Shown here: positions 487-38,653 of the stretch, one piece after another
Layout of the letters: each line of letters begins with the position of its first letter
Numbering within the stretch: position 1 is the stretch's first letter
NCBI GenBank assembly: GCA_036845225.1
Contig: DAIUEJ010000005.1
Coordinates: forward strand, 10,808 to 74,807
Direction of reading: 5' to 3'
From: Candidatus Anoxymicrobiaceae bacterium
GTDB taxonomy: Bacteria > Actinomycetota > Geothermincolia > Fen-727 > Anoxymicrobiaceae
Length of the DNA: 64,000 bases
Made by a program: the position numbers and the translations under genes
The notes under the pieces: model-generated
The model's input: the letters and a program-made list of their open reading frames with translations, nothing else
Told to the model about the DNA's origin: nothing
The model's database searches: none

Positions 487-2220
487 TTAGCGGCGGCGGG
501 TTGAGATGGGCATCCGCCAGTCGCGGCCGAACGCCCGGGGAGTGATCTTGACCCCGACGGGAGCCTGCCGCCGCTTGTACTCGTTGGCGTCGACCGTCGC
601 TATCACCCGTGAGACGAGTTCGTGGCTCATGCCTCTAGCCACTATCTCCTGAGCGCCCAGCCCTTGTTCGACGTACGCCTCCAGCACGGGGTCGAGCTCC
701 TCATAGGGAGGCAGTGAGTCGGTGTCGAGCTGGTCCGCCCGGAGCTCGGCGGTAGGCGGCCGCTCGATTATGAACGCCGGGATGACTTCCTTGCCCGCGC
801 GCTCGTTGATGTACTCGGCAACCTCGTAGACCTGTGTCTTCAAGAGGTCCTTGATCAGAGCGAAGCCTCCTGCCATGTCCCCGTACAGAGTGCAGTAGCC
901 CATCGACAGCTCGCTCTTGTTGCCGGTGGCCAGCACCAGCCAGCCGAACTGGTTGGATAACGCCATCAGGAGGTTGCCCCTGATCCGTGCCTGGAGGTTC
1001 TCGTAGGCGACCCCTTCGTCTTTCTCGCCCAGCTCAGGCGCCAGGTCCTCCACATAGCTGGTGTAGACCGATCCTATCGGCAGCACTATCAACTTCACCC
1101 CGAGGTTTTGCACGAGCTCCTCCGCCGCGCTGCCGCTCTCCCCCGCCGTGTACTTGGAGGGGAGGAAAACACATACCACGTTCTCCTTACCCAGCGCCTC
1201 TACGGCGAGCGCCGCGGTCAGCGCCGAGTCGATCCCGCCGGAGAGCCCGAGCACGACCTTCTTGAACCCGTTCTTGGCGACGTATTCATCCAGGCCCAGC
1301 ACCAGCGCCTCGAATATCTCTTCGGTGAGCGACATCTCCGCGACCGGCTCCACGCGCCCTGAATCAGGCCTCGCGGCCTCGAAGGTGGACGGCTTTTCCA
1401 GGACGCAGACCTCAACCTCTGAGTGAGGGCACTCCGCCCGGCTGTAGCGGAACCGCGGCTCCAGGAGGCGATTGCTCTTGAGGGGCTCGAGGTCGACCTC
1501 GCACACCAGCAGCTCTTCTTCAAACCTCCGGGCCGTCGCGATGAACCCCTGTTGAGGATGATAGACACAGGACCCGCCGTCGAAGACCAGCTCGTCCTGG
1601 GCGCCGACCATGTTGCAGTAAGCGATCACGACCGGCCCGTCCATCGACCTCGATGCGATCAGTTTCCTGCGGTACTCGTATTTTCCGCGGTTGAACGGGG
1701 ACGCCGATAGGTTGAGGATGATCTCGGCGCCTCCGCGCGCCACCTGCTCTTCCACCGGCCCGCCGGGGAACCAGATATCCTCACAGATGGTTATTCCCAC
1801 GCGCACCCCGGAGACTTCGATCACCACGTTGCGGTTGCCGGCGCCGAAGTACCTCTTCTCATCGAAGACGCCGTAGTTAGGGAGAAAAGTCTTCCTGTAG
1901 ACGCAGCGCAACTTTCCCCGGTTGATAACGGCCGCCGAGTTGAAGACGTCGTAGTCCGCCTCGGCGTAGCCCACCACCGCGATGGTGTCACCGATGCCGC
2001 TCGCGAGCTCGTTCATCGCGGCCATGCTGCTGCGGTTGAAATCGGTCTTGAGGAGGAGGTCCTCGGGAGGATACCCGGTCAGGCAAAGCTCCGGGAAGAG
2101 CACTATGTCCGCGCCGGCGGCCTTTGCCTCCTCGACGTACTCCATTATCTTGCTCGAGTTGCCCTCGAGATCTCCGACCGCGCTCTTGACCTGAGCGAGC
2201 GCAAGAACCAGTCCTGGCAC
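487..2220 (-). CDS. nadE: Glutamine-dependent NAD+ synthetase (N-terminal CN-hydrolase/nitrilase domain plus C-terminal NAD synthase domain)
   Basis: 577 aa. N-terminus has the carbon-nitrogen hydrolase pattern (LFPELCLTGYPPEDLL) and the C-terminus the NAD synthetase P-loop region (VVLGLSGGIDSAL). Confidence 0.85.
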   Translation of the reverse strand: MPGLVLALAQVKSAVGDLEGNSSKIMEYVEEAKAAGADIVLFPELCLTGYPPEDLLLKTDFNRSSMAAMNELASGIGDTIAVVGYAEADYDVFNSAAVINRGKLRCVYRKTFLPNYGVFDEKRYFGAGNRNVVIEVSGVRVGITICEDIWFPGGPVEEQVARGGAEIILNLSASPFNRGKYEYRRKLIASRSMDGPVVIAYCNMVGAQDELVFDGGSCVYHPQQGFIATARRFEEELLVCEVDLEPLKSNRLLEPRFRYSRAECPHSEVEVCVLEKPSTFEAARPDSGRVEPVAEMSLTEEIFEALVLGLDEYVAKNGFKKVVLGLSGGIDSALTAALAVEALGKENVVCVFLPSKYTAGESGSAAEELVQNLGVKLIVLPIGSVYTSYVEDLAPELGEKDEGVAYENLQARIRGNLLMALSNQFGWLVLATGNKSELSMGYCTLYGDMAGGFALIKDLLKTQVYEVAEYINERAGKEVIPAFIIERPPTAELRADQLDTDSLPPYEELDPVLEAYVEQGLGAQEIVARGMSHELVSRVIATVDANEYKRRQAPVGVKITPRAFGRDWRMPISTRRR

Positions 2221-2281
2221 CTTTCAACCTCCCTGCCGTGCCGCTTCAAAATAGCATACCACGACACGCCGGGAGGCACGC

Positions 2282-2620
2282 TCAGATGGCCCGGTCTCCG
2301 ACCTCTCCCGTCCTTACCCGTATCGCGTCGGCTACATCGGTGACGAATATCTTGCCGTCGCCGATCGCGCCGGTTCGCGCCTTCCTGACGATGATGTCGA
2401 TCATCTTCTCCAGGTCCTCGTCCATGACGACGACCTCGACCTTCACCTTTGGTATGAACCGGATAGTGTAGGCGTTGCCCCGCCATTGCTGCTCCAGGCC
2501 CTTCTGCTTGCCGTGGCCTTTCACCGCGGTGATGGTGACGCCCGGGTAACCGATGGTCTCGAGCCCGTCGATCACTGAATCCAGCTTGTTCGTTCTAACT
2601 ATCGCCTCGACCTTTTTCAT
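2282..2620 (-). CDS. glnK: Nitrogen regulatory protein P-II (GlnK/GlnB family)
   Basis: 112 aa: MKKVEAIVR...TGEVGDGKIFV, the typical PII fold sequence, located immediately downstream of amtB. Confidence 0.9.
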   Translation of the reverse strand: MKKVEAIVRTNKLDSVIDGLETIGYPGVTITAVKGHGKQKGLEQQWRGNAYTIRFIPKVKVEVVVMDEDLEKMIDIIVRKARTGAIGDGKIFVTDVADAIRVRTGEVGDRAI

Positions 2621-2638
2621 CAGTCCTCCACTATCGGC

Positions 2639-4195
2639 TCAGGCAATGTCGTCATAAAGGTCCGTGGTCTCGTCCGTGTATGCCGGGACTCCCATCTCTG
2701 CGGAGTCGAGGCCGTTCACCTCATCCGCGGGGGCCACCCTGATGCCCTGGATCTTATCCTGCACTTTGAAGAACGCATACGCGAGCGTGCACACGAACAC
2801 GATGCACGTCGCCGCGCCGATGAGCTGCACCAGGAACTGTCCATATCCCCCGTAGAGCAGGCCTCTGACGGTCCCTGACACACCGTTCCACCCGGCACCG
2901 TAGGTGCCGTCCGCGAAGATGCCCAGCGCGATGACTCCCCATAGTCCGTTGACGCCGTGGACCGCCACCGCGCCGACGGGGTCGTCGATCTTGAAGCGCC
3001 GCTCCAGTGTGGTCACCGCGACGCACACCAGCACGCCGGCGATGGCACCTATGATCGCGGCTTCCCAGCCGGACACGAAAGCGCACGGCGCGGTGATGGC
3101 CACGAGTCCCGCGAGGCACCCGTTGGCGCTCATGGACGGGTCCGGGAACCCCGTCTTCTTCCACATATACAGCATCGCCACTACGGCACCGAAACAAGAC
3201 GCGAGCAAGGTGTTGGTGGCGACCACCGCCAGCCTGAGGTCGCCGCCGTTCAGGGTGCTGGCGGCGTTGAACCCGAACCATCCGAACACCAGGATGATGG
3301 TCCCGACGATCGCTAGGGGGATGTTGTGCCCGGGTATCGCCCGCGGCGTGCCGTCTTTCTTGAACTTCCCGATGCGCGGTCCGAGCACGAGTATTCCCAT
3401 CAGGCCCGTCAGGCCGCCCACGGCGTGCACCACCGACGACCCCGCGAAATCGACGAAGCCGTGTCCGAGGTGAGCGTGCACACCGAGCTGCGACAGCCAG
3501 CCGCCGCCCCATACCCAGTTGCCGAAGATCGGGTACAGGATAGCGCCCATGAATAACCCGTATACGCAGAACGCGGAGAACTTCCAGCGCTCGGCCATCG
3601 CCCCGGTGGGAATGGTCGCCGCCGTGTCCATGAACACTACTTCAAACAGGAAGAACAGGAAGATCCCGGTATCGTATGCCGGGCCACCCAGGGCGAAGCC
3701 CTTGAACCCGAAGAGGCCCCATCCGCCGATACCCACCTCGCGCGTCATGATCGCGGTGCCGCCGAACATCTTGAGCGCGCCTACCCCTCCGAACATGATC
3801 CCGAACCCGACGAAGTAGAAAGCCAGTACGGCGATGCCGAATATCATGAAGTTGGTCATCATGACGTGGAGCGCGTTCTTCTTCTGGCAGAAGCCCGTCT
3901 CGAGCAGCGCGAACCCGGCCTGCATGAAGAAGACCAGGATGCCGCCGAGAAACACCCAGATGAAGTTGGTGGCGATCTTGTTGTGGCCGACGTCATCGAG
4001 CACGGCGTCCACGGGGCTGGCGCCCTTGTCGGCCGGAGCAGAGACATCGGTCCTGTTGCCGGTCTTTGTTCCGTTCGGGTCACCCGCCCTCGCGATGGAA
4101 CCGAGGCAGAACAGGGCCATAATGATAAGTGCGGCCACCAGCGTCGCCCTGTATAGCTTGTGGCGCCTGTCGCGCATGGTCGTCAAATCCGTCAC
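2639..4195 (-). CDS. amtB: Ammonium transporter (Amt family), forming an amtB-glnK operon
   Basis: 518 aa polytopic membrane protein with Amt signatures (FALLETGFCQKKNALHVMM, DFAGSSVVH) and a signal/TM N-terminus. Confidence 0.9.
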   Translation of the reverse strand: MTDLTTMRDRRHKLYRATLVAALIIMALFCLGSIARAGDPNGTKTGNRTDVSAPADKGASPVDAVLDDVGHNKIATNFIWVFLGGILVFFMQAGFALLETGFCQKKNALHVMMTNFMIFGIAVLAFYFVGFGIMFGGVGALKMFGGTAIMTREVGIGGWGLFGFKGFALGGPAYDTGIFLFFLFEVVFMDTAATIPTGAMAERWKFSAFCVYGLFMGAILYPIFGNWVWGGGWLSQLGVHAHLGHGFVDFAGSSVVHAVGGLTGLMGILVLGPRIGKFKKDGTPRAIPGHNIPLAIVGTIILVFGWFGFNAASTLNGGDLRLAVVATNTLLASCFGAVVAMLYMWKKTGFPDPSMSANGCLAGLVAITAPCAFVSGWEAAIIGAIAGVLVCVAVTTLERRFKIDDPVGAVAVHGVNGLWGVIALGIFADGTYGAGWNGVSGTVRGLLYGGYGQFLVQLIGAATCIVFVCTLAYAFFKVQDKIQGIRVAPADEVNGLDSAEMGVPAYTDETTDLYDDIA

Positions 4196-4246
4196 GCCCG
4201 TCTGACCCCCGTTCGCAGACCGTGTCTCATGAACTCAGGTTAGAAG

Positions 4247-4292
4247 GGCGATGTTTCGTGACGGTTTCACGAATGTAAAATGTAGGTAACAG
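4247..4292 (-). promoter_or_regulatory. Putative nitrogen-regulator (GlnR-type) operator upstream of amtB: GTTAC-n6-TTTAC-n6-GAAAC-n6-GAAAC, followed by ATCGCC
   Basis: Minus strand reads tGTTACctacatTTTACattcgtGAAACcgtcacGAAACATCGCC. The same GAAAC-n6-GAAACATCGCC core occurs upstream of glnA (37883-37917). Confidence 0.45.
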
Positions 4293-4423: not shown

Positions 4424-5242
4424 GTGCCTTCTCGAGTGCCGCCCCGTAGCCCGCGCCGACTGCTCCATGAACAGCCCCCTGCGAGCGCCCTCAGGGCGCG
4501 TGCTACGCGATGCGGGGTCAAGGGCTCCGGGGTCCGGCTCGCACTCGGCGCCCAGCAGTCTTCCCCAGTAATACGGGGTTGTGAGCTCTACTTCCGAGGG
4601 GATGCCGCCTTCGCCTCACCGGGCGTCTACGAATACCTGGAGCAGAACCACATCCTCTACGCCACCAGACTTCCCGCAAACCAGGTACTCTCCAGGGATA
4701 TAGAGCACCTCATGACCAGGCCGGTGGGAAGACCTCCCAAGAGACCAAGGGTTTTCTACCATGACTTCTCCTACCAGGCCACCTCCTGGAGCACGCCCAG
4801 GAGGGTGATTGCGAAGGTGGAGTGGCACGCAGGTGAGCTGTTCCCGAGGGTTGGCTTTATCGTGACCAACATGACCGCGAAAGCCAAGAACGTGGTGAGG
4901 TTCTACAACAAGCGCGGCAACTGCGAGCAGTGGATAAAGGAAGGGAAACGCACCCTTACCTGGACCAGGTTATCCTGCACCAGGTTCTCCTCCAACCAGG
5001 TGAGGCTCGCGCTGTTCGTCCTGGCGTACAACATGGGAAACTTCCTCCGCCGTTTCGCCCTTCCGAGTCAGGTCTCGCACTGGTCGCTATCCAGCATCCA
5101 GCTCAAGCTCATAAAGATTGGAGCAAAGGTGATGAGCCATTCGAGGAGGACGATCTTCCAGATGGCGGAGGTCGCCGTCCCTGAGGCGCTATTCGCCGCT
5201 CTCCTGGAGCGTATACGTTGCCTGGTCGCCGCGCCGACTTGA
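4424..5242 (+). pseudogene. IS1380-family DDE transposase, N-terminally truncated remnant (C-terminal ~215 aa only)
   Basis: Motifs RVIAKVEWHAGELFPRVGFIVTNM...FYNKRGNCEQWIKEGKRTLTWTRLSCTRFSSNQVRLALFVLAYNMGNFLRR match the IS1380-family C-terminus. The N-terminal ~60 residues of the ORF are non-homologous read-through, and no N-terminal transposase half is present. Confidence 0.7.
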
Positions 5243-5358
5243 TAGGCACAGAGGTTGTTCACATGAACGCAGAGATAACGGTCAATGGTCCTCAATCGTC
5301 ATCGAAGACGGGCTCGACAGGCAGGCGGTAACTTCGAGAAAGAGAGACGAGGGCGAGA

Positions 5359-5637
5359 TTGCGCCTCGGTAATCGGCTTCAAGGGGGTATAATGATGGCG
5401 TCGGCGGCTGGAAATGGGAAATGTCAGCTGAAAGTAATAGGCCGCTTGAAACCCCCCTTGTTTTCACCAGAAGAAACATGGGAGAAGATTGGGAATGTCG
5501 ACAACGTGGTTTTCCCTACCGGAGCAGTGGTTAGAAATGGCCGTGTCTATATTTACTATGGCGCTGCCGACAAGTTGATTGCCGCGAGATCTGTTGATCT
5601 GGCAGAGCTGTTGACCAAACTCAAGAGAAGCCCGTGA
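5359..5637 (+). pseudogene. Glycoside hydrolase family 130 (GH130), C-terminal fragment only
   Basis: NVVFPTGAVVRNGRVYIYYGAADKLIAARSVDLAELL matches the conserved GH130 C-terminus and is paralogous to the full GH130 gene at 8969-9910. Only ~90 aa are present, directly after the IS remnant. Confidence 0.6.
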
Positions 5638-5641
5638 GACC

Positions 5642-7921
5642 ATGAGCCCCCAACAGCAGAATAGATACTGGATAGTCTGTGTTTCTACCTTCCCGCCGCG
5701 ACAGTGCGGCATCGCCACCTTTACCACTGACCTTACCAATGCTGTTGACAAGATGTTCGAACCGTCGATTAGGTCAAAGATTATTGCGATGAATCGTACT
5801 GAAGTAAGTCATTATTCCTACCCTGACAAAGTAATATCCCAGATATGTCAACCCCGTGAAAAAGACTACGTTGATGCTGCCGACAAGCTCAACCGGCTCG
5901 AAAAGGTAAGACTTGTCAACATCCAACATGAATTCGGGATCTTCGGAGGGGAGAACGGTTCACACATACTTCTCTTTTTAGAAAAACTTCAGAAACCGCT
6001 TGTTGCCACATTACACACAGTTCTTCCCACTCCAGACGAAGGAATGCGCAACGTTGTTCAAGCTATCATGGAGTATTCAAAAGGAATAATCGTTATGACG
6101 CACTACTCAAAGAAGATTCTCGAAAGAGATTACGGGTTGGATCCTAATCGAATTCAAGTTATTCCTCATGGGATCCACCATGTTCCCTATAGAAATACCA
6201 AGAAAGCCAAGTCTGCACTTGGCTTTTCTGGCAAATTGATCCTTTCAACCATTGGATTCCTTAGCCCCGGCAAGGGGATCGAGTACGTGATCGAGGCCTT
6301 GCCGCCGGTAGTACGGAAGTTCCCTAATGTTCGATATCTCGTCGCCGGCATTAGCCATCCTCTTGTTGTGAAACAGGAAGGCGAAAGTTACCGTAATTCT
6401 CTCATAAAGAAAGTTTACGAACTCGGTTTGAGCGAATACGTTCTTTTCGACAACACCTATTATGATCTAAATGACCTTCTAGAGTTCCTATCGGCTACCG
6501 ATATCTATATATCTCCCTCCTTAGATCCAAACCAGACCGTCTCCGGCACTTTGTCTTACGCCCTTGGCAGCGGTCGTCCGGTAATATCCACGGCTTTTGC
6601 CCAGGCCAGAGAGGACATTACTGATGATGTAGGCGTATTAGTTGACTTTAAGAACCCGCAGGCTTTCAGTGATGCCATCATTGAATTGTTGGGCAATGAT
6701 CAGCTTCGTCTGCAAATGGGCAAGAGATCTTATCTACACACAAGACACATGACCTGGCAAAATGTTGCCCTTTCCTACGTGAAATACTTCTCTCAATTTG
6801 TGCCGGAGCTAACCCTGGCACAAAGGGAACTTCCACGCGCAAAGCTTACGCATCTGGCTAAATTGACTGACAACTTCGGCATTATTCAGTTTGCCGAGTT
6901 TGCCGAGCCGGATCTTTCCTCTGGATATACCTTGGACGATAATGCCCGGGCTTTGGTTGTTGCCGCGCTCGATTATGAACAACACAGAACCTCTTCTTCA
7001 CTAAGTCTCGTCTCCATCTACCTCGACTTTCTTTATCGGGTAGCCAAACCCGATGGTTATTTCGATAACTATGTCAATCCAAACCACACTATTGACGAAC
7101 AGAGGAATAGCCGTGAATACTCAGAAGATGCCAGCGCCAGGGGACTATATGCGCTTGCCGTGGTCTCAACTACCAAACAAATCCCCGGACGCTTGAGAAA
7201 AAAGGCCCATTACTTGTTTGAGCAGAGTTTCCGGAAAGACATTGCTTTCTCCTCACCTCGTGCTATCGCTTCTTATATCAAGGCCCTCGCAAGTTTGCTT
7301 TCGAGATGGGAGGATGCAAGAACGCTTGCTGCACTAAAACACAACTGTGAAAAACTCTTGGCTCTATACGAGAAGAATCACTCACAGGACTGGGAGTGGT
7401 TCGAGCCTTATCTGACGTATTCAAATGCTCTCATGCCAGAAGCTCTTCTACACGGATGCAGAATAACCGGTGCGAGAAAATATTTCGAAGTGTCTGAAAA
7501 AACCCTCAGCTTCTTGATTAAGCATACCTTCAATGACAGCATGTACATCCCCATAGGCCAAGACGGCTGGTTTGTAAGGGGAGAGACGAGACAGTATTTT
7601 GACCAACAGCCCGAGGATGTTGCTGCTACCGTAGTAGCTCTCAACGCGATGTTTCGGGTAACGAACGAGGAGCATTACAGGGAATTGGCATACAAAGCAT
7701 TCAACTGGTTCCTGGGAGATAATATGCTTGGGCAGGTTGTCTATGATCACACCACCGGAGGATGTCATGATGGGCTTGGGAAAAAGTCCATTAACTTGAA
7801 TCAGGGAGCTGAATCTACCATTTCTTGCCTTTTGGCCCGTTTTTCATTCGACTGCTCAAAGTCAACTAAAAATTCCCTAGTTACAAACAATCATCGTCTC
7901 CCAATCACCCGGTTAGCATAA
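5642..7921 (+). CDS. Bifunctional-architecture protein: N-terminal GT4 (group 1) glycosyltransferase plus C-terminal (alpha/alpha)6 six-hairpin glycosidase-like domain
   Basis: 759 aa. N-terminal WIVCVSTFPPRQCGIATFTTDL and the Glycos_transf_1 region (GKGIEYVIEAL...). The C-terminal half has repeated helical-hairpin signatures (DNARALVVAALD, GLYALAVV, NQGAES). Confidence 0.6.
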   Translation: MSPQQQNRYWIVCVSTFPPRQCGIATFTTDLTNAVDKMFEPSIRSKIIAMNRTEVSHYSYPDKVISQICQPREKDYVDAADKLNRLEKVRLVNIQHEFGIFGGENGSHILLFLEKLQKPLVATLHTVLPTPDEGMRNVVQAIMEYSKGIIVMTHYSKKILERDYGLDPNRIQVIPHGIHHVPYRNTKKAKSALGFSGKLILSTIGFLSPGKGIEYVIEALPPVVRKFPNVRYLVAGISHPLVVKQEGESYRNSLIKKVYELGLSEYVLFDNTYYDLNDLLEFLSATDIYISPSLDPNQTVSGTLSYALGSGRPVISTAFAQAREDITDDVGVLVDFKNPQAFSDAIIELLGNDQLRLQMGKRSYLHTRHMTWQNVALSYVKYFSQFVPELTLAQRELPRAKLTHLAKLTDNFGIIQFAEFAEPDLSSGYTLDDNARALVVAALDYEQHRTSSSLSLVSIYLDFLYRVAKPDGYFDNYVNPNHTIDEQRNSREYSEDASARGLYALAVVSTTKQIPGRLRKKAHYLFEQSFRKDIAFSSPRAIASYIKALASLLSRWEDARTLAALKHNCEKLLALYEKNHSQDWEWFEPYLTYSNALMPEALLHGCRITGARKYFEVSEKTLSFLIKHTFNDSMYIPIGQDGWFVRGETRQYFDQQPEDVAATVVALNAMFRVTNEEHYRELAYKAFNWFLGDNMLGQVVYDHTTGGCHDGLGKKSINLNQGAESTISCLLARFSFDCSKSTKNSLVTNNHRLPITRLA

Positions 7922-7931
7922 AGGGTTAGCT

Positions 7932-8966
7932 ATGCGCATTGCGATGCTCTCTCCGATTGCTTGGCGCACGCCGCCGCAACATTACGGCCCGTGGGAAAGC
8001 GTGGTCTCCCTTTTGACCGAGGGGCTGGTCTCGCGCGGCTATGATGTTACCCTCTTTGCGACCGGTGATTCGCAAACAAGCGGCAAGCTCCATGCCGTTT
8101 GCGCGCGGGGCTATGAAGAAGACCTCTCCATTATGCCAAAAGTATGGGAGGGCCTGCACATTTCGGAACTCTTCGAGCATGCTGAAGATTTCGATATTAT
8201 CCATAACAATTTTGACTTTCTACCTCTGACATACACCGGCCTTACCACCACCCCGGTCGTTACTACTATTCACGGCTTTTCATCGCCCGGGATTTTGCCG
8301 GTTTACAAGAAATACAACGGCAAGGTGTTCTATGTTTCCATCAGCGATGCCGACCGGTCGCCGGATCTGGACTATATCAAAACCATCCATCACGGCATAG
8401 ATATAAAGCAGTTTGATTTTCAGCCTGAACCGGACGATTATCTGCTCTTTTTCGGGCGCATTCACCATGACAAGGGTGCCAGAGAGGCCATTGAAATTGC
8501 CAGGGCTTGCAATAAAAAGCTGATATTGGCGGGAATCATCCAGGATGAAGCCTACTATCACCAGCACATCGAACCGCACCTGGACAACGACAATGCGGTT
8601 TATGTCGGCAGCACCGGGCCGGTTCAGCGCAACCGGCTGCTTGGCAAGGCATGCGCGCTTCTGCATCCCATAAATTTCAATGAGCCTTTCGGCCTGGCCG
8701 TTATCGAGTCCATGGCCTGCGGCACTCCTGTAATCGCCTTTAACAGGGGTAGCATGCCCGAACTTATAGAAAACGGCAAGAACGGTCTTCTCGTAAAAAC
8801 AGTGGATGAGGCAATAGGGGCTGTTGCACGCATAAAAGATATTGACCGGGTATGCTGCCGCCGCCGTGTTGAACAGCATTTCACGGTCGATCGTATGGTT
8901 GAAGAATATATTCAGGTCTATGAAACGGTTCTCGAAAAAACGAAAAGAGAGGACCACCGACACTGA
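7932..8966 (+). CDS. GT4 family glycosyltransferase (group 1)
   Basis: 344 aa: MRIAMLSPIAW...EPFGLAVIESMACGTPVIAFNRGSMPELIENGKNGLLV, the canonical GT4 C-terminal domain. Confidence 0.8.
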   Translation: MRIAMLSPIAWRTPPQHYGPWESVVSLLTEGLVSRGYDVTLFATGDSQTSGKLHAVCARGYEEDLSIMPKVWEGLHISELFEHAEDFDIIHNNFDFLPLTYTGLTTTPVVTTIHGFSSPGILPVYKKYNGKVFYVSISDADRSPDLDYIKTIHHGIDIKQFDFQPEPDDYLLFFGRIHHDKGAREAIEIARACNKKLILAGIIQDEAYYHQHIEPHLDNDNAVYVGSTGPVQRNRLLGKACALLHPINFNEPFGLAVIESMACGTPVIAFNRGSMPELIENGKNGLLVKTVDEAIGAVARIKDIDRVCCRRRVEQHFTVDRMVEEYIQVYETVLEKTKREDHRH

Positions 8967-8968
8967 CT

Positions 8969-9910
8969 ATGACTACTCAATATCCCATTATAAAACGTTA
9001 TAAAATAAATCCCATTCTCACAAAAGATGATGTCCCCTACCCTGTAGCCACGGTCCACAATGCCGGCATAGTCAGGCATGGCGGCCGCTACATTATGCTG
9101 TTCAGGTCGCACCGTTACAACGGACGCTCCATCATCGGCAGGGCCGACAGCGATGATGGTTTTTCCTTCACTGTCCATCCCAAACCCTTTCTCATACCTG
9201 CAAAGGACAACATGTTTGCAGAATATGAAGAGTTCGGAGTCGAGGACCTGAGAATCTGCCCGGTAGAGGACGACTACCTGCTTACCTACAGCGCGTATTC
9301 CCGTCACGGCGTTCGGACTGCCCTTGCGCGCACCAGAGATTTTGAAAAAGTTGAACGCATTGCGCTTATAACCCAGGCCGACCTTCGCAACGTCGTCATT
9401 TTCCCTGTAAAGTTCGGTGGCAGGTATGCGCGTCTTGACCGGCCACATTCCGAAATTTCACCCTGGTCTATCTGGATTTCCTATTCCCCCGACCTGGTTC
9501 ACTGGGGTGATTCACGGGTGATTATGAAGCCGGTTCCCTATCATTGGGATGGAATGAAAATCGGTCCCGGCGCACCGCCCTTCAAGACCGACAAGGGATG
9601 GCTGCATATTTACCATGGGGTCTTTATGACCATGGCTGGGGCGGTATATCGCCTTGGTGCGGCCCTGCATGACCTTAATGATCCGGCAGAAATCATCGGG
9701 GTTTCCGATCAGTGGATACTGCAGCCCGAGGATCCCTGGGAGGTAAGCGGCTATGTGCCCAATGTTGTTTTTAGCTGCGGCGCTGTTCCTGAAGACGACG
9801 GTACGGTAAAAATATACTGGGGCGGTGCTGATACGGTTATGTGTGCCGGTACGGCAGTGATTGATGACCTTGTACAATTATGTCTTACAAATACCAGGCC
9901 GGCGCTGTAA
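8969..9910 (+). CDS. GH130 family glycoside hydrolase / beta-mannoside phosphorylase-like
   Basis: 313 aa with a GH130 five-bladed propeller profile (ATVHNAGIV, LLTYSAYS, KGWLHIYHGV, NVVFSCGAV...IYWGGADTVMCAGTA). Confidence 0.8.
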   Translation: MTTQYPIIKRYKINPILTKDDVPYPVATVHNAGIVRHGGRYIMLFRSHRYNGRSIIGRADSDDGFSFTVHPKPFLIPAKDNMFAEYEEFGVEDLRICPVEDDYLLTYSAYSRHGVRTALARTRDFEKVERIALITQADLRNVVIFPVKFGGRYARLDRPHSEISPWSIWISYSPDLVHWGDSRVIMKPVPYHWDGMKIGPGAPPFKTDKGWLHIYHGVFMTMAGAVYRLGAALHDLNDPAEIIGVSDQWILQPEDPWEVSGYVPNVVFSCGAVPEDDGTVKIYWGGADTVMCAGTAVIDDLVQLCLTNTRPAL

Positions 9911-10283
9911 AAAAGGTTAAGAGGACCTTGCCAAGAGCAACCTTCTTGGCGTACTCGCTCCGCTCCCTCTCGAGCTCGTCAGGCCCGAGGAGCGTCATGC
10001 ACCAGGCACCCTCGCGATCGGAGCCATCACAAGCAGCGTTGTCGCAACGATCGCGATCGCATAGTGTGCATTCTCACGTAACTGAACACTGATTCTCATC
10101 TTGCTTGAGCACTTCCGGAATTAGAGGATTCGAACCCTCTCCTGTCGTTTTACCCCGATCAATCACTTCGAGGCCAAGACCCTTGTTGCATTTCGATCTC
10201 ATGCTGAAAGAGCCCAGCGGTAAGGCATAACGCTGGACTAGATTGCGCATCCAGTCTTGAAAGTGAATATCGACTGGGGCTCC

Positions 10284-10334
10284 CCCCGGCCCCCCTGAGT
10301 CGAGGGTTCGAATCCCTCCAGCTCCACCACCAAA
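10284..10334 (+). repeat. Partial, inverted copy of the tRNA-Ala 3' half (acceptor/T-arm plus CCA plus 4 nt), forming a 39-bp perfect inverted repeat with the adjacent tRNA-Ala gene
   Basis: 10296-10334 gagtcgagggttcgaatccctccagctccaccaccaaat is the exact reverse complement of 10363-10400. The upstream ggggctcc mimics a tRNA 5' end, but no D-arm or anticodon arm is present. Confidence 0.55.
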
Positions 10335-10365
10335 TATGAAGGGTGGTCAGGAAGAGTGAAGGATT

Positions 10366-10443
10366 TGGTGGTGGAGCTGGAGGGATTCGAACCCTCGACT
10401 TCTACCCTGCCAAGGTAGCGCTCTCCCCCTGAGCTACAGCCCC
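10366..10443 (-). tRNA. tRNA-Ala (anticodon GGC), G3:U70 present, CCA encoded
   Basis: Minus strand reads GGGGCUGUAGCUCAGGGGGAGAGCGCUACCUUGGCAGGGUAGAAGUCGAGGGUUCGAAUCCCUCCAGCUCCACCA. Clean cloverleaf with anticodon loop UUGGCAG. Confidence 0.85.
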
Positions 10444-10494
10444 ACACGGGTGCAAAAGATGCGAGTGTAATGATAACCGTACCTCAGGAGCCGC

Positions 10495-19805: not shown

Positions 19806-21968
19806 ATGAACTATCGCGGCCTACTTTCTCGCAGGGGCGGGCCCGGCCACGAACAGGGCTACCGTGCGAGGGGCGACATCAGCCACCTCTTGTTCGTGAC
19901 CGCGCGGCCCGGCATACAGCTCCTCTGGACCATCCTCGTGGTGGCCACCCTTGCCTATACGCTCATCAGCAGCGGCCCGAAGTATCCCGGCGTGGTGGTC
20001 CTCATGATGGCGACCTTCGCGCTGGTAATCCTCGGCAACCATTTCTTCCCGTTCGACGAATACCGGCCCGTGCTGTTCTTCTTCCTCATGGCCGCCTCTT
20101 TGGCCCTGACCTCGTCCATCGTGTTCCTGACCGGCAACCGGAACAGCCTGCTGGGCTTCCTCTTCTTCGCGGTACCGATCTTCGCATCCGCTTACTACGG
20201 CTATCCAGGCACGCTCCTGATGTCCCTCCTGACCGGGTTCGCCCGTTACATCCCGTTCATGACGGGTGGGGTCTCGGGACTGCAGCAGCTCGCGCTCGCC
20301 CTGTCCGCGGCGACCTACGTGTTCATCGGCATGATGTCCTGCTACGTGGTCGAGGGCGAGAAGATGTACGCGAGGGAGTCGAACGAGTACCGGCACCTGC
20401 TGGAGCTCTCGCGTCACAAGGAGCGCGATGTATCGCGCATCTACAACCTGAGCAGGCGGTTCTCGTATACGCTCGACCTCGACACGATCCTGAAGACGAC
20501 GGCCGCCCTCGCCCGGCAGATGCTCGCCTCCGAAAGCGCGCTGGTGTTCCTCATGGAGGGTGGCAGGCCTGTCCTCAAGGCCGCGCTCGGGCTCCTGCCG
20601 TTCACTGACATGGCCTCCGTTTCGGTCCCCGTTGAGAGCGCCTGGTTCCAGCGGCTGGCCGCCGGCGACGCTGTCATCGAGGAGAAGGCCACCCTCGGCT
20701 GGCTGCCTCTCACCCCCGAATCCGCGGGCAAGAAGCACAACATCGCCGCGGTCCCGCTTTTCACGGGCGGGGACGTGACCGGCTACCTCCTATGCCTCTC
20801 GCCGGCCGCGAGGTCTTTCAGGGAGTCAAACCTGGAGATCCTTTCGACGATCGCGAGCCAGGCTGCGGTGGCGGTCGAGAAAGCACAGCTCTACGCCGAG
20901 ACCCTCGATGACAAGACCAAGGTCGAGACTATCCTGAGCGCCTTGCGGGACGGCCTCCTGCTGACCGACACCCGGGGCAGGCTGGTCGAGGCCAACCCGG
21001 TCGCGGCGAGGATGCTAGGACTCGAGACGGATCCTGACGGCACCCGCCTGCAGGAGGTGCTCGCCACGGTCGTCGAGGATTGCGACCTCGGCCACCTCAC
21101 CCTGAACGAGGCGGTCGAGGCCGCGCTGGATGGGCGCACCGTCTTCGGTGAGATGGTCCTCTCGGGCGAGACCCACATGACCGTGCAGGCCCACTTCATC
21201 CCGCTCCGCGACCAGCTCTCCAACGTCTCGGGCGTTGTACTGGTCCTGCATGACATCACCGAGCTCAAAAGGGTCGACGAGATGAAGTCCAATTTCGTCA
21301 CCAACGTCTCGCACGAGCTGCGCACGACTCTCACCAGCATCTCGGGTTTCGTGAGCCTGCTTCTCGCCGGACGTGCGGGGGCGCTGTCTGCCAACCAGGA
21401 GAAGTACCTCGACGTGGTGAAGCAGCAGGCTTCGAACCTCACCAGGATGATCGAGGACCTCCTTGACCTCTCCAGGCTGCAGGCGAGCCGCAGCAGGGCA
21501 GGCGCGCAGCGCTCCGAGCTCGTCGACCTCGCCGAACTAGCGGCCAGGCAGTTGGCCGAAGCGGCGAACGACGGCTCGATCGATGTCCGGCTCAACATCA
21601 GCGAAGACCTCCCGCCGGTGGACGCCGACCCGGCCCGCCTTTCGCAGGTCCTCATCAACATCATGGAGAACGCGATCAAGTTCACCCCGCCTGGCGGGCT
21701 GGTGGAAGTGGGGGCCATGCTCAACGGTTCATTCGTCCAGGTGAAGGTGTCTGACACCGGCGCGGGCATCTCGCATTCGGCGCTGCCCCACATCTTTGAC
21801 AGGTTCTTCCAGGCGCACGGCGGCGACTCCGCGGACCAGGGGGGCTTCGGGCTGGGGCTCGCGATATCGCGTGAGATCATCGAGCTTCACGGCGGCAGGA
21901 TCTGGTGCGAGAGCGACCCGGGGCGTGGCTCGACTTTCTACTTCACAGTCCCCATCTATGCAAAATAG
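19806..21968 (+). CDS. Sensor histidine kinase: multi-TM N-terminal domain, GAF, PAS, HisKA, HATPase_c
   Basis: 720 aa; H-box DEMKSNFVTNVSHELRTTL and ATPase N/G boxes (NIMENAIKFT; DTGAGIS; GGFGLGLAISREI). Confidence 0.85.
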   Translation: MNYRGLLSRRGGPGHEQGYRARGDISHLLFVTARPGIQLLWTILVVATLAYTLISSGPKYPGVVVLMMATFALVILGNHFFPFDEYRPVLFFFLMAASLALTSSIVFLTGNRNSLLGFLFFAVPIFASAYYGYPGTLLMSLLTGFARYIPFMTGGVSGLQQLALALSAATYVFIGMMSCYVVEGEKMYARESNEYRHLLELSRHKERDVSRIYNLSRRFSYTLDLDTILKTTAALARQMLASESALVFLMEGGRPVLKAALGLLPFTDMASVSVPVESAWFQRLAAGDAVIEEKATLGWLPLTPESAGKKHNIAAVPLFTGGDVTGYLLCLSPAARSFRESNLEILSTIASQAAVAVEKAQLYAETLDDKTKVETILSALRDGLLLTDTRGRLVEANPVAARMLGLETDPDGTRLQEVLATVVEDCDLGHLTLNEAVEAALDGRTVFGEMVLSGETHMTVQAHFIPLRDQLSNVSGVVLVLHDITELKRVDEMKSNFVTNVSHELRTTLTSISGFVSLLLAGRAGALSANQEKYLDVVKQQASNLTRMIEDLLDLSRLQASRSRAGAQRSELVDLAELAARQLAEAANDGSIDVRLNISEDLPPVDADPARLSQVLINIMENAIKFTPPGGLVEVGAMLNGSFVQVKVSDTGAGISHSALPHIFDRFFQAHGGDSADQGGFGLGLAISREIIELHGGRIWCESDPGRGSTFYFTVPIYAK

Positions 21969-22875: not shown

Positions 22876-24981
22876 TTAGACCATGCCAGGAAGGCGCCGG
22901 GTCGGGGCCACCTCTTCCTGCCTCGCAAACCCGGTGTTCGTCAGCTCTTCCTCAGCGACCGCCGCCATGAACGCTTTTACGACCACCGGGTCGAACTGCG
23001 TCCCGGCGTTGAGCTCCAGTTCCCTGACGGCCTCGGCGACGGGCAATGCCTTGCGGTAAGGCCGGTCCGACATCATCGCCTCGAAAGAGTCAGCCACCGC
23101 GAGTATCCTCGCTCCCAGCGGGATATGCTCGCCCGCGAGGCCGTCCGGATACCCCTTGCCGTCAAACCGCTCGTGGTGGTGCAGGATGATCTCCCGGGGC
23201 GCCTGCAGGAAAGTCACGGGCTCAATGATGGAGTCGCCGAGTTGCGGATGGGTCTTGACGTGCACGAACTCCTCCTCCGAGAGGGCGCCCGGCTTGTTCA
23301 GGATCTTTCTCGCGATTCCGATCTTCCCGATGTCGTGGAGGGCCGCCGCGTACTTCACGTTGCGGCACTCCCACTCCGACAGCTCGAGCTTGCGCGCGAT
23401 CGCCATGGCGTAGTCCGTTACACGCTCGGAGTGGCCGTAGGTGTAGGGGTCCTTGACCTCGATGGCCCTGGCGAGCGCCTTGACCGTCGAGAAGTAGCTC
23501 ATCTCCAGGTCCTCGTACAGGGACGCGTTCTCGAGCGCCACCGCCGCCTGGCCCGCGATGCCGGTCACCATGTTCAGGTCATCGCTCTCGAACTCGTCCC
23601 CCTCCTTGGAGGAGAAGAGCACGACCATGCCGAGCAGGTTCTCGCGCGAGAAGATCGGCACCAGCACGACGGAGCGCGTCAGGGTGTCTTCGATGCGCCC
23701 GCGCGGGATGAACGGCGAGAGCTGCGGCTCGCAGATGGCCACCTGGTGGTTGAACAGGGACTCGACGTCCTCGTCGGTGAGGTCCGCCGGCTGCACGCCT
23801 TCGCCCAGCTCCATCTCCCAGTCCGAGTCGGGGAAGACGCCGAAAGTGGCCGTCGGATAGAAGCGGCCGCTTTCGGTGACGTAGATGTACACGCTGCACT
23901 TGCCGACCTCGCAGACGTCGGCGGTGATCTGGACCAGGCGGGAGAGCAGTACGTCGATGTCCAGCGTGGAGGTGACCAGCCTCGCGACCTCCAGGAGCGC
24001 CATGGTCTCTTTCAGCTTCTGCTGCTCGCTCCCGTGGAGGCGCGCGTTCTCCATCGCGGCGGCGACCTTGTTGGAGAACCTCACCGCCAGGTTGACCATC
24101 TCCTGGGTGAACATCTGGGGGCGCTCGACGTTGTCGATGAGCATCATCCCGACGTTGCGGTCGCGGACCATCAGCGGCGTGATGAGAACGACTTTCGTCT
24201 TCATCTTCTTCATCAGCGAAGACATCGCCGGCATGGTCCGCGGATACCCCTCCACCACCACGGCTTCGCCGTCGTGGACGAGCTGCTTGATGAGGACCTC
24301 GTCGAGGTTGAAGCCGCCCTCTCCGAACACCCTCTCGTGGTCGAAATTGGAGGCCTCGACGTGCAGTTCGTTCGTGAGCAGGTCCCTTGTGATGAACGCG
24401 CACCTGCCGGCGTCGACCAGCTCGATGCACTTCTTGATGGAGGTGAGCATCAGCGTGGTGAAATCGAGGGTGGCCGCCAGGTTGCTCGGGAACCTGTCTA
24501 TGTCCTTCTGGTAGGCGTGGTAGAACTTTATGACCTCGTCCCTGGTCTGCGTGAACGACTGCGCCCGGATGTTCTCCGCCTGCCCGAGCAGGTCATCGAG
24601 GACGAGAGAACACTGGAAGGCGGCCGTCGGGCTCGCCTCACCCTGCTCCACCATGTCCTTCACCACTGCGATGAGCGCCGTCTTTACCGCGACCGGCACG
24701 CACAGGACGTCCTTCAGGGAGTATCCGTTCTTCGCATGCGAGTAGCTCTGGAAAGTCTCGTTGCCGAGGAAATCCGTGGTGTCGCCGTCGGAGATGGCGC
24801 CCTTGAGCGAGTCGAGGTAGTTGATGAAATACTTCTTGCGGGTCAGCTTCATGAAGGCGTAGAACGAGGACGATGGCGTGTCGTGCTCGGGTATCTTCGC
24901 GAGGACGTCCGCCCGCCTCCTTGAGTGCACGTCGAGCGCCAGTGCCCTGCCTTCTTTGTACTCCGATGAGGATGCCGTCAT
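22876..24981 (-). CDS. c-di-GMP phosphodiesterase-like protein: GAF-GAF-HD-GYP
   Basis: 701 aa; two GAF regions followed by an HD-GYP domain (AAALHDIGKIG...HHHERFDGKGYPDGL). Confidence 0.8.
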   Translation of the reverse strand: MTASSSEYKEGRALALDVHSRRRADVLAKIPEHDTPSSSFYAFMKLTRKKYFINYLDSLKGAISDGDTTDFLGNETFQSYSHAKNGYSLKDVLCVPVAVKTALIAVVKDMVEQGEASPTAAFQCSLVLDDLLGQAENIRAQSFTQTRDEVIKFYHAYQKDIDRFPSNLAATLDFTTLMLTSIKKCIELVDAGRCAFITRDLLTNELHVEASNFDHERVFGEGGFNLDEVLIKQLVHDGEAVVVEGYPRTMPAMSSLMKKMKTKVVLITPLMVRDRNVGMMLIDNVERPQMFTQEMVNLAVRFSNKVAAAMENARLHGSEQQKLKETMALLEVARLVTSTLDIDVLLSRLVQITADVCEVGKCSVYIYVTESGRFYPTATFGVFPDSDWEMELGEGVQPADLTDEDVESLFNHQVAICEPQLSPFIPRGRIEDTLTRSVVLVPIFSRENLLGMVVLFSSKEGDEFESDDLNMVTGIAGQAAVALENASLYEDLEMSYFSTVKALARAIEVKDPYTYGHSERVTDYAMAIARKLELSEWECRNVKYAAALHDIGKIGIARKILNKPGALSEEEFVHVKTHPQLGDSIIEPVTFLQAPREIILHHHERFDGKGYPDGLAGEHIPLGARILAVADSFEAMMSDRPYRKALPVAEAVRELELNAGTQFDPVVVKAFMAAVAEEELTNTGFARQEEVAPTRRLPGMV

Positions 24982-36398: not shown

Positions 36399-36414
36399 AT
36401 GCCTGCCCGACTTG

Positions 36415-36438: not shown

Positions 36439-36446
36439 GTTGAGTC

Positions 36447-36487: not shown

Positions 36488-36501
36488 TGTTTACGCCTGC
36501 T

Positions 36502-37839
36502 CTACAGGATCGGCAGGTAGTTATTCAGCTCGTACTCGGTCACCACAGCTCTGTACTTCTCCCACTCGACCTTCTTGTCGGTGATGAGCGAATGGAAGAC
36601 GTGCTCGCCCAGGGACTCCTTCAGCAGCTCGCTGTTCTCGGCGAGCTTGATGGCCTCCCAGAGGTCTTCGGGGAGGCTCTTGATGCCCAGGGACTCGCGC
36701 TCCTCTTCCGGCATCTCGTAGATGTTTCGCTCGATCGGGGCCTCCAGGTCCAGGTCGTCCTCGATCCCTTTCAGGCCGGCGGCCAGCATGACCGAGAAGG
36801 CGAGGTACGGGTTGCATGCCGGGTCGGGCGAGCGGAGCTCGATCCGGGTCGAGTTCTCCTTGCCGGGCTTGTAGGTCGGCACCCTGATGAGGTCGGACCG
36901 GTTGCGCTGCGCCCAGGAAAGGTATACCGGCGCCTCGTAGCCGGGCACCAGCCGCTTGTAGGAGTTCACGAACTGGTTCGTGACCAGGCAGAACTCCTGG
37001 GCGTACTTGAGCAGCCCCGCGATGAAGGCCTTGGCCTCATGTGTGAGGTAGTACTGGTCTTTCGGGTCGAAGAACGCGTTCCTGTCACCTTTGAACAGGG
37101 ACATATGCGTGTGCATCCCGCTTCCGTTCTCATCGGACAGGGGCTTGGGCATGAACGTCGCGTGGACGCCCTGCTTGATCGCAACTTCTTTGACGACGAG
37201 CCTGTAGGTCATGGCATTGTCGGCCATCTGGAGCGCGTCAGTGTAGCGCAGGTCGATCTCGTGCTGGCTCGGCCCGACCTCGTGGTGCGAGTACTCGACG
37301 CCGATGCCCATCTCCTCGAGGGTGAGGACGGTCTCGCGCCTGAGGTCGCTCGCCACGTCAAGCGGAGTGAGGTCGAAATAGCCGCCCCGGTCCAGTGTCA
37401 CCGGCGGGGGCTCGGAGTCCGCGAAGTAGTAGTACTCGAGCTCCGGTCCGACGTAGAAGGTGTATCCGAGCTCCTGCGCCTTCTTCAGGTTGCGCCGCAG
37501 CACGAAGCGCGGGTCGCCCTGGTGGGGGCTCCTGTCAGGCTCGAGGATGTCGCAGAACATCCTCGCAACCGCGCTGTGGCCGCTAGGGCGCCAGGGCAGC
37601 AGGGCGAACGTCGACGGGTCAGGCTGGGCGATCATGTCGCTCTCGTCGATCCTGGCGAAGCCCTGGATGCTCGAGCCGTCGAAGCCCATGCCGTTTTCCA
37701 GTGCCTCCTCGAGCTCTTCCCTGGTTATGGCGAAGCTCTTCAGGAAGCCGAGGATGTCCGTGAACCACAGCCGTATGAACTTCACGTCGTGCTCGCGCAC
37801 CGCTTCCAGAACGTAGTCGTTGTCCGGGCCTGATACCAT
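36502..37839 (-). CDS. glnA: Glutamine synthetase type I
   Basis: 445 aa; GS beta-grasp and catalytic domains (FDGSSI; KPLSDENGSGMHTHMSLF). Confidence 0.9.
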   Translation of the reverse strand: MVSGPDNDYVLEAVREHDVKFIRLWFTDILGFLKSFAITREELEEALENGMGFDGSSIQGFARIDESDMIAQPDPSTFALLPWRPSGHSAVARMFCDILEPDRSPHQGDPRFVLRRNLKKAQELGYTFYVGPELEYYYFADSEPPPVTLDRGGYFDLTPLDVASDLRRETVLTLEEMGIGVEYSHHEVGPSQHEIDLRYTDALQMADNAMTYRLVVKEVAIKQGVHATFMPKPLSDENGSGMHTHMSLFKGDRNAFFDPKDQYYLTHEAKAFIAGLLKYAQEFCLVTNQFVNSYKRLVPGYEAPVYLSWAQRNRSDLIRVPTYKPGKENSTRIELRSPDPACNPYLAFSVMLAAGLKGIEDDLDLEAPIERNIYEMPEEERESLGIKSLPEDLWEAIKLAENSELLKESLGEHVFHSLITDKKVEWEKYRAVVTEYELNNYLPIL

Positions 37840-37882
37840 AGTTCCTCCTTATCAGCGTTGCCTTTCCACGCAATTGTAGAGA

Positions 37883-37917
37883 GGCGATGTTTCCAAAATG
37901 TTTCATAGCCGTGAAAT
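37883..37917 (-). promoter_or_regulatory. Putative nitrogen-regulator operator upstream of glnA (TTCAC-n6-GAAAC-n6-GAAACATCGCC)
   Basis: Minus strand reads aTTTCACggctatGAAACattttgGAAACATCGCC; it shares the GAAAC-n6-GAAACATCGCC core with the amtB upstream site. Confidence 0.45.
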
Positions 37918-37981
37918 AGTTGTAAATCAGCCGGACGGGAGCGGACCCGGCTCGAGGAACAATGGCCGGGGTCCCTCGCCG

Positions 37982-38653
37982 CTACTTGCCGGTGAACCGG
38001 TAGCCTACTCCGTGGACCGTCTCTATGTACTGGCGAGAGGTCTCGATCTTCGCCCGCAGGCGCCGGATGTGGACGTCCACCGTCCTCGTCCCGCCAAAGT
38101 AGTCGTATCCCCAGATGCTCTTCAGCAGTTCTTCCCTGGTGTACGCGCGGCCCGGGGTCGCCGCCAGCATCTTGAGGAGTTCGTACTCCTTGTACGTCAG
38201 GTCCAGCGGCTTGCCGGCGAGCACGACCTGGTGCGCGTCCATGTTGATGACCAGGTCGTCAAAGGCCATCACGTTGCCTTCCCTGCCTCTCCTGATGCCC
38301 ATGATCCGCACCCGTGATACGACCTCCAGTGCCGTTCCGGGGCTGACCACGAAATCATCGAAGTATTTGAGCGTCTCAATTTCGGAGAGGAGCCCGGCAT
38401 CCCTCAGTGCGGCCATCAGTGGGATCCTGGAAGCCCAACCGCCGACCTTCTGCATGGCGTTCCTGGCGGCGCGGGCCTGGTGAACGTGCGGGCTCACGAT
38501 GAGGACCGCGGCGAAGCTGTCGTCCAGCACCGTCTCCAGGTCATCTGATTTTTCAAAGCCCAGGACGGTGAGCCCGAGGTCCCTCAGCCCCTCCTCGAGG
38601 GACGCGGAGTAATCGGACCCGTCGCCGCAGAAGGCTATGCTCTCGTCGTTCAC
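37982..38653 (-). CDS. OmpR-family winged-helix response regulator with atypical receiver domain (GlnR-like candidate nitrogen regulator)
   Basis: C-terminal trans_reg_C (LTYKEYELLKMLAATPGRAYTREELLKSIWGYDYFGGTRTVDVHIRRLRAKI...GVGYRF). The N-terminal receiver lacks an obvious cognate kinase nearby. It is adjacent to glnA. Confidence 0.6.
   Translation of the reverse strand: MNDESIAFCGDGSDYSASLEEGLRDLGLTVLGFEKSDDLETVLDDSFAAVLIVSPHVHQARAARNAMQKVGGWASRIPLMAALRDAGLLSEIETLKYFDDFVVSPGTALEVVSRVRIMGIRRGREGNVMAFDDLVINMDAHQVVLAGKPLDLTYKEYELLKMLAATPGRAYTREELLKSIWGYDYFGGTRTVDVHIRRLRAKIETSRQYIETVHGVGYRFTGK

Follow-up and report, generated by a model that had tools for sequence, protein, structure and literature searches.

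The question raised by this locus is whether two nitrogen-assimilation operons of an uncultured actinobacterium are governed through a common type of upstream site and, if they are, whether the governing protein is the OmpR-type regulator whose gene lies beside one of them. The stretch of DNA analysed, called the window below, is 64 kb long. A preliminary description of it had pointed to a direct repeat, GAAAC-n6-GAAAC, before amtB-glnK and before glnA, had likened this repeat to the GlnR boxes of actinobacteria, and had predicted that a nitrogen-regulon circuit is contained in the window. The reading favoured in the present work is that both sites are GlnR-type activator-dependent promoters under the control of the adjacent regulator, and the probability assigned to it is roughly 0.7.

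The GlnR cis-element with which the sites must be compared has the form gTnAc-n6-GaAAc-n6-gTnAc-n6-GaAAc, the four component sites being designated a1-b1-a2-b2 (PMC10235972, PMC10704036), and an A at position 4 of the pentamer is required in GlnR boxes (PMC10704036). [quoted passage not shown]

Target genes and host

Both target units are encoded on the minus strand. The first is the amtB-glnK-nadE operon (487..4195), identified by Pfam and NCBIfam matches, which comprises amtB (2639-4195; Ammonium_transp, 2e-113), glnK (2282-2620; P-II, 1e-29) and nadE, the gene for a glutamine-dependent NAD synthetase (487-2220; NF010588, 1e-207). The second is glnA (36502..37839), which encodes a type I glutamine synthetase of 445 amino acids (Gln-synt_C, 3e-126; TIGR00653, 7e-154) and which has a Shine-Dalgarno sequence, AAGGAGG, at 37850-37844 and, at 36485-36458, a terminator hairpin of its own. 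The regulator gene (37982-38653) stands on the same strand, immediately upstream of the glnA site, and is itself preceded by rsmB, fmt, def and metK.

Judged by its sequences, the host is an uncultured, deep-branching actinobacterium of Ca. Geothermincolia (Actinomycetota): the PheS protein of the window is 74-75% identical to those of Ca. Anoxymicrobiaceae and Ca. Anoxymicrobium japonicum, and 79% identical (over a partial sequence) to that of Ca. Geothermincolia. The host is probably anaerobic, since genes for a glycyl-radical enzyme and an activase are present. These belong to a wider set of signalling and anaerobic genes at 19806-21968(+), 22876-24981(-), 52899-54563(-) and 57859-61770(-), which encode a GAF-PAS histidine kinase, a GAF-HD-GYP-type phosphohydrolase, a PknB-like PASTA Ser/Thr kinase, and the glycyl-radical enzyme with its activase. 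The window also holds an FMN riboswitch at 28690-28806(-) (110.6 bits), ahead of a ribD-ribE-ribBA riboflavin operon.

Just upstream of the amtB promoter, at 4424-5242(+), is a gene for a DDE transposase that has lost its N-terminal part (it matches positions 212-433 of the 435 in the profile), and a group of glycosyltransferase genes with a GC content of 45-53%, compared to 62%, extends from about 5200 to 10450 and ends at a tRNA gene (10372-10443, -). The transposase and the low-GC stretch together look like an integrated island. The sequence upstream of the amtB promoter is also found in a 99%-identical contig (L088).

Four-pentamer arrays upstream of amtB and glnA

The repeat GAAAC-n6-GAAAC occurs twice in the window, at 4253-4268 and 37889-37904, both on the minus strand, where 0.09 ± 0.29 matches are expected, and none of 100 shuffles gave two. 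Its presence before both nitrogen operons in the same orientation, as claimed in the preliminary description, is confirmed. The extended form GAAAC-n6-GAAACATCGCC has exactly two occurrences in the 64 kb, ahead of amtB-glnK-nadE and of glnA, and the 22-mer GAAACNNNNNNGAAACATCGCC is exact at 4247-4268(-) and 37883-37904(-), its sole further match, with three mismatches, being at 22390.

Each copy of the repeat forms the 3' half of a longer array, which consists of four pentamers of the pattern K-W-H-A-C, conserved most strongly in the form GAAAC, at 11-bp phase, is oriented in the direction of the downstream gene, and is followed, 10 nt downstream of its last pentamer, by a TAnnnT hexamer. The amtB promoter array (4253..4290, -) is GTTAC(4290-4286)-n6-TTTAC(4279-4275)-n6-GAAAC(4268-4264)-n6-GAAAC(4257-4253), in which the pentamers are predicted to be the a1-b1-a2-b2 sites of four protomers. 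The array is trailed by ATCGCC (4247..4252, -), which constitutes the n6 of the b2 repeat unit, and the predicted -10 element TAACCT (4237..4242, -) begins exactly 10 nt 3' of the last pentamer, so that the minus strand from 4290 to 4237 reads GTTAC-ctacat-TTTAC-attcgt-GAAAC-cgtcac-GAAAC-ATCGCC-cttc-TAACCT. The glnA promoter array (37889..37926, -) is TTTAC(37926-37922)-n6-TTCAC(37915-37911)-n6-GAAAC(37904-37900)-n6-GAAAC(37893-37889); its ATCGCC tail (37883..37888, -) is identical to that of the amtB site, its predicted -10 element TACAAT (37873..37878, -) stands at the same distance of exactly 10 nt, and the minus strand from 37926 to 37873 reads TTTAC-aactat-TTCAC-ggctat-GAAAC-attttg-GAAAC-ATCGCC-tctc-TACAAT. 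The (G/T)T(T/N)AC-like half sites that had been suspected upstream of the repeat are thus present in both arrays and are phased exactly at 11 bp. The distance of 55-60 nt originally given between the motif and the start codons proves to be approximate only, since the interval from the end of ATCGCC to the start codon is 44 nt for glnA (ATG), and either 52 nt (GTG at 4195) or 71 nt (ATG at 4176) for amtB.

Position 4 of the pentamer is A in all eight pentamers of the window. The pattern of four KWHAC pentamers at 11-bp phase, with at most one mismatch, has two matches in the window and none in the shuffles. A position weight matrix (PWM) derived from the relatives alone scores the glnA site at 55.3 bits and the amtB site at 30.5 bits, compared to 12.3 bits for the best match in 30 shuffled windows. 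A third match to this matrix, at 5959-5996(+) (TTCAC/TTCTC/GAAAA/GAAAC, 21.5 bits), is probably due to chance, because it is part of the coding sequence for a glycosyltransferase, within an island of 46% GC, and has no TAnnnT at +10.

A promoter scan found no sigma-70-type pair of -35 and -10 elements in either promoter region. If TAACCT and TACAAT are the -10 elements, then the arrays span about -60 to -23, and b2 falls at about -27 to -23, a placement consistent with that in the published complex. An Rfam scan of the window returned the FMN riboswitch and a tRNA only, with no RNA element at either array.

The candidate regulon visible in the window consists of the amtB and glnA operons, both of which carry arrays; no four-pentamer array is found before the glutamate synthase operon beside glnA, before the regulator gene or elsewhere in the window. 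The glutamate synthase operon is of the split, archaeal type (CCG/Fer4, GATase_2, Glu_synthase, GXGXG), and the spacer that separates it from glnA (36266-36441, -) contains neither a GlnR-type array nor an Rfam match. This spacer does contain blocks common to the window and L001-L003, namely AACTTTTCGGGGTCAGGT (36441-36424), GGATATCATTGCG (36346-36334) and the extended -10-like TGCTAAAAT (36274-36266). Directly after the glnA stop codon, GTAAACATCGCG at 36483-36494(-) combines a single GlnR-like pentamer with an ATCGCG tail; it overlaps the 5' arm of the glnA terminator hairpin and is probably a chance occurrence.

Conservation in related lineages

The array and its fixed spacing to the -10 element are kept before glnA in seven other lineages (L001, L084-L087, L012 and L091) and before amtB in four, with sites on L088-L090, L012 and L091. 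The gene order rsmB-regulator-glnA-glutamate synthase recurs on contigs whose regulators are 57-75% identical to that of the window, and in all five of these for which DNA is available (L001, L084-L087) the spacer between regulator and glnA contains the array TTTAC-n6-TTCAC-n6-GAAAC-n6-GAAAC, which in the most distant of them is degenerate (TTAAC/TTCAC/GTAAC/GAAAT). The hexamers found exactly 10 nt past the array in these five are TAGAAT, TAGACT, TATCAT or TACAAT. The amtB-glnK-nadE order of the window is repeated on three metagenome contigs (L088-L090) with AmtB proteins 73-99% identical to that of the window, and the sites before their amtB genes are of the form GTTAC-n6-TTTAC-n6-GAAAC/GAAAA-n6-GAAAC-n10-TA(A/G)CCT. 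In a metagenome-assembled genome (MAG) named "Actinomycetes bacterium" (L012) and in L091, amtB-glnK-glnA-nadE clusters lie beside a GlnR-like gene, and arrays with the n10-TAnnnT geometry precede both amtB and glnA.

Aligning the sequences upstream of eight glnA and five amtB genes shows where the constraint lies. The invariant columns fall within the pentamers (T.AC /.AC / G.AA / GAAA), with the A at position 4 among them, within TA...T and at the start codon; the TAnnnT hexamer at +10 is invariant in all of the relatives' amtB and glnA sites, and the flanks around the arrays cannot be aligned. Footprinting in relatives agrees with the a1-b1-a2-b2 layout of the published cis-element, and the interpretation of the repeat as a GlnR box is supported. 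The hexamer ATCGCC, described earlier as identical at the two window sites, is indeed so, but it is not conserved in relatives beyond A-y-C: an A is found at +1 in 12 of the 13 sites and a C at +3 in 10 of the 13, among variants such as ACCTTC, ATCTAA, ATCCCT, ATCGCA, ATCCAA, ATCACC and AACGGG. Since its recurrence is limited to A(+1) and C(+3), ATCGCC was rejected as a conserved part of the motif, and its full identity between the window sites is largely a species-level feature. No covariation was seen between the recognition helix and pentamer variants such as the AAT-type pentamers of L091.

The matches listed by a scan of genome contigs with the regulator profile are for the most part canonical GlnRs and proteins from Dehalococcoidia, with identities of about 40%, and include no close relative of the regulator. 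The best-matching regulator locus among the matches listed (L004), with 45% identity, comes from Ca. Geohydrothermomicrobium (Actinomycetota; Ca. Geothermincolia); it is the sole locus of the same class among these matches, and it ends 32 nt past the regulator gene.

Several further observations concern more distant loci and the genes around the targets. Full-length homologues of the regulator, at 37-41% identity, are present in Dehalococcoidia MAGs (Chloroflexota; L006-L010, L033 and L049), some of them less than 2 kb from glnA, and no clear four-pentamer array was seen before the glnA genes of these MAGs. Two low-GC metagenome contigs (L099 and L108), whose amtB genes are about 57% identical, have upstream runs of TTAAC/TTAAT at 11-bp phase followed by TATAAT, so the same direct-repeat promoter design seems to occur in unrelated low-GC lineages too. 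The linkage of glnK with nadE is common to all related loci (L088-L091 and L012), and a small NH3-type nadE lies directly upstream of the regulator gene in L086 and L087. Control of NadE by PII has been described (PMC7196632).

The regulator protein

The regulator (37982..38653, -) is a GlnR-like orphan member of the OmpR/PhoB family, 223 amino acids in length, with an N-terminal domain of receiver fold and a winged helix-turn-helix domain that carries a GlnR-type recognition helix. It had been introduced in the preliminary description as an OmpR-type regulator with an atypical receiver, and both halves of that characterization are sustained by more detailed comparisons. A search of the PDB with the single sequence places GlnR structures first (E = 3e-32), with 8HIG, 8HIH and 8HML as the top matches, and a profile built from 30 homologues finds 8HIG at 3.7e-43 and 8HIH at 1e-40, the next regulator being RegX3 at 7e-31. 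The entry 8HML is the DNA-binding domain of S. erythraea GlnR with DNA, and 8HIH is the GlnR transcription activation complex of M. tuberculosis (PMC10235972); 8HIG is likewise described, in its entry, as the S. erythraea GlnR DNA-binding domain with DNA. A Foldseek search of the PDB is not specific enough to tell GlnR apart within the OmpR/PhoB family: it matches such regulators generally, with 8HIH second but having the top identity (32%) among full-length two-domain matches.

The agreement on the DNA side extends to individual contacts. The residues through which S. erythraea GlnR touches DNA are T149, K151, R169, W177, R186, T187, V190, H191, R193, R194, R196, T209 and Y215 (PMC10235972), and all 13 are identical in the regulator, as T153, K155, R173, W181, R190, T191, V194, H195, R197, R198, R200, T212 and Y218. 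Across the 30 homologues 12 of the 13 are invariant, and V194 is at least 90% conserved. The Arg/Ala pair that discriminates GlnR from GlnRII is in the GlnR state, R197 with A201. The contacts that GlnR makes with the beta flap in 8HIH are kept to a lesser degree, at one or two of six positions by a derivation made by hand (R169 identical, and one conservative change from F to Y).

The N-terminal domain is a receiver in fold but not in its phosphorylation chemistry. The AlphaFold2 model (pLDDT 90) has a complete (beta-alpha)5 receiver fold followed by the winged helix, whereas Trans_reg_C (1e-28) is the sole significant Pfam domain of the protein, and Response_reg gives no match in it even at E<=1. 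The Pfam family GlnR_1st (PF21695) matches the N-terminal domain weakly (E = 0.019, 15.4 bits compared to a cut-off of 27), and it matches 17 of the 30 homologues at E<=1, with a best value of 2e-5. At the sites of the canonical phospho-acceptor Asp (end of beta3), Thr/Ser (beta4) and Lys (beta5), the regulator has S54, A81/A82 and S104. In an alignment with canonical GlnR reading frames from Mycobacterium, Rhodococcus, Pseudonocardia, Demequina, Bifidobacteriaceae and Actinoplanes loci, the GlnR Asp ("VDARTDL", "VDGRHDL", "LDARKDL") falls on S54, which is Asn in many homologues and is followed by an invariant P55, and the equivalent of Arg52 is H56. A Ser-Pro or Asn-Pro replaces the essential Asp in all 30 homologues examined, and the L004 regulator also has Asn-Pro there.

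In characterised GlnR proteins the conserved Asp, numbered D50 in A. mediterranei and D48 in M. smegmatis, is reported to be needed for dimerisation as well as for activity in M. smegmatis, and in its unphosphorylated state it acts within a charge network with Arg52 and Thr9 (PMC10704036). Because the acceptor position is Ser/Asn-Pro throughout the subfamily, the regulator cannot be phosphorylated on Asp, and the loss of the conserved residue may also mean that it oligomerises differently on DNA. It is also an orphan: its neighbours, in the window and in five relatives, are rsmB and glnA, with no adjacent kinase gene. As far as residues can tell, the regulator is GlnR-like on its DNA side, yet it is without one of the defining features of the characterised GlnR family.

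Regulation of the two promoters

The reading that we favour, that both sites are activator-dependent promoters under the adjacent regulator, can be put in mechanistic terms by homology with the activation complex that GlnR forms in M. tuberculosis. Each pentamer would be occupied by one protomer of the regulator, giving a head-to-tail row of four that covers about -60 to -23. The protomers nearest to the -10 element would lie around or just downstream of the -35 position and would substitute for the missing -35 element, through contacts of the protomers with the beta flap, sigma region 4 and the alpha subunits of RNA polymerase. The outcome would be that amtB-glnK-nadE and glnA are switched on when nitrogen is scarce. 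Since the acceptor position is Ser/Asn-Pro, the activity of the regulator would be set without Asp phosphorylation, by its abundance, by another modification, or by a ligand or partner. Binding by the adjacent regulator, the activating sign and the nitrogen-limitation signal are each what we infer. The strict 10-nt phasing of the array to the -10 element in every lineage is the arrangement that a face-specific interaction between the bound protein and RNA polymerase would call for. The missing -35 element is no proof of activator dependence, because many actinobacterial promoters have no -35 element anyway.

The same protein on the same arrays could also act with the opposite sign, occluding RNA polymerase at promoters that have only a -10 element and releasing them under nitrogen limitation. 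This would suit an array that overlaps the -35 region and reaches to within 10 nt of the -10 element, and a regulator in which the beta-flap contact residues are poorly conserved; GlnR is, moreover, a known repressor of some genes (PMC10704036). Repression is nevertheless judged unlikely, because amtB and glnA are classic GlnR-activated genes in characterised actinobacteria, because the predicted placement of b2, immediately past the -35 position, matches exactly the one in the activating GlnR-TAC, and because simple occlusion does not require the strict phasing seen in all lineages.

A second alternative concerns the identity of the bound protein. The arrays might be occupied mainly by an OmpR/PhoB-family protein encoded outside the window, of the MtrA, PhoP or canonical GlnR type, with the adjacent Asp-less protein playing a minor or competing role like that of GlnRII in Streptomyces. 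In that genus the promoters of glnA and amtB contain overlapping sites bound by MtrA and PhoP, and GlnRII binds these promoters without being their main regulator, and likewise has no phosphorylation residues; the window, furthermore, is only 64 kb of a genome. This alternative too is judged unlikely, since the recognition helix of the regulator is of the GlnR and not of the GlnRII type, since the array goes together with the adjacency of regulator and glnA in all relatives examined, and since the Asn-Pro at the acceptor position is shared by the best match listed from the same class (L004). That the resemblance of the two sites is chance or the relic of a promoter duplication, with no regulatory role, is very improbable: although the identity of the 11-mer GAAACATCGCC is partly coincidental, given that relatives do not keep its ATCGCC part, the statistics of motif, matrix and pattern against shuffles argue against chance, which is excluded by the retention of both pentamers and spacing in lineages whose flanking sequences have diverged.

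A more far-reaching proposal can be made about the regulator itself, namely that the Asp-less "S/N-P" regulators, whose genes keep a fixed place between rsmB and glnA, make up a separate and ancient branch of GlnR confined to Ca. Geothermincolia and to uncultured Actinomycetota close to it, and that their pseudo-receiver has a replacement for the Asp-centred dimerisation network. This proposal is speculative and is considered improbable as a whole. The replacement device could be, for example, a surface with the invariant residues D11, R64, G71-G72, S75 and D99 that senses a nitrogen metabolite directly or on which PII or glutamine synthetase (GS) docks.

Comparison with known systems

The closest parallel is the GlnR of characterised actinobacteria (S. 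coelicolor SCO4159, M. tuberculosis Rv0818, A. mediterranei and S. erythraea). The window system shares with it the four-site cis-element with 6-nt gaps, the core targets (the amtB-glnK operon and glnA), the orphan status of the regulator, and identical residues in the recognition helix and at the phosphate contacts. It differs in that Ser/Asn-Pro-His replaces the Asp (D50/D48) and the nearby Arg52, that the C-terminal tail is absent (223 amino acids compared to about 255-265), that the wing residues R211/N212 are H/G, and that the N-terminal domain scores below the Pfam threshold for GlnR_1st. The genomic setting differs as well: the regulator gene is fixed between rsmB and glnA, the amtB-glnK operon ends in nadE rather than in glnD as in characterised actinomycetes, and the host belongs to Ca. 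Geothermincolia and not to the class Actinomycetes.

Among the promoters bound by Streptomyces GlnRII, a GlnR paralogue with neither the conserved phosphorylation residues nor a kinase, are those of glnA and amtB (PMC10704036). The window regulator resembles it in having no phosphorylation residues and no adjacent kinase gene, but GlnRII has Ala in place of Arg-195 and Arg in place of Ala-199 in its recognition helix, where the window regulator has the GlnR-type R197 and A201. GlnRII is also reported to be without alpha4/beta5, whereas the predicted model of the window regulator has a complete (beta-alpha)5 fold.

The pho boxes of PhoB and PhoP are likewise made up of direct repeat units of 11 bp, arranged head-to-tail, that replace the -35 element, and the E. 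coli pho box ends about 10 bp upstream of -10. The repeats themselves, CTGTCAT or GTTCACC, are unlike those of the window arrays. PhoB and PhoP, moreover, are phosphorylation-dependent, have a cognate kinase and in most cases occupy their sites as two protomers, and PhoB/PhoP structures match the regulator family profile some 20 orders of magnitude less well than GlnR does. The GlnR/TnrA proteins of Bacillus and other Firmicutes are of the MerR family, an unrelated protein family with a palindromic operator; they have in common with the window system only a name and the control of glnA, and do not apply as a model for its sites.

Implications

Among the papers searched, none connects GlnR with Geothermincolia, Coriobacteriia, Rubrobacteria or Acidimicrobiia. 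The results support the presence, in a lineage new to it, of the known GlnR type of promoter architecture, served by an Asp-less variant of the regulator. GlnR-type nitrogen control, together with a four-site architecture like that of M. tuberculosis, is thereby extended to an uncultured, anaerobic, deep-branching class of Actinomycetota, and the four-site architecture may be ancient within the phylum. The matrix that describes it (four KWHAC pentamers, 10 nt and TAnnnT) is usable for predicting the nitrogen regulon in MAGs of these lineages.

Apart from the loss of the Asp, the circuit is an ordinary and expected one. That loss is the feature with the widest bearing, because the Asp held to be "essential" in GlnR would appear to be dispensable in a whole subfamily, which would constrain models of GlnR activation. 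If the proposal of a separate Asp-less subfamily is true, a minimal GlnR of this kind could show to which input signal, long looked for, the GlnR-type regulators respond.
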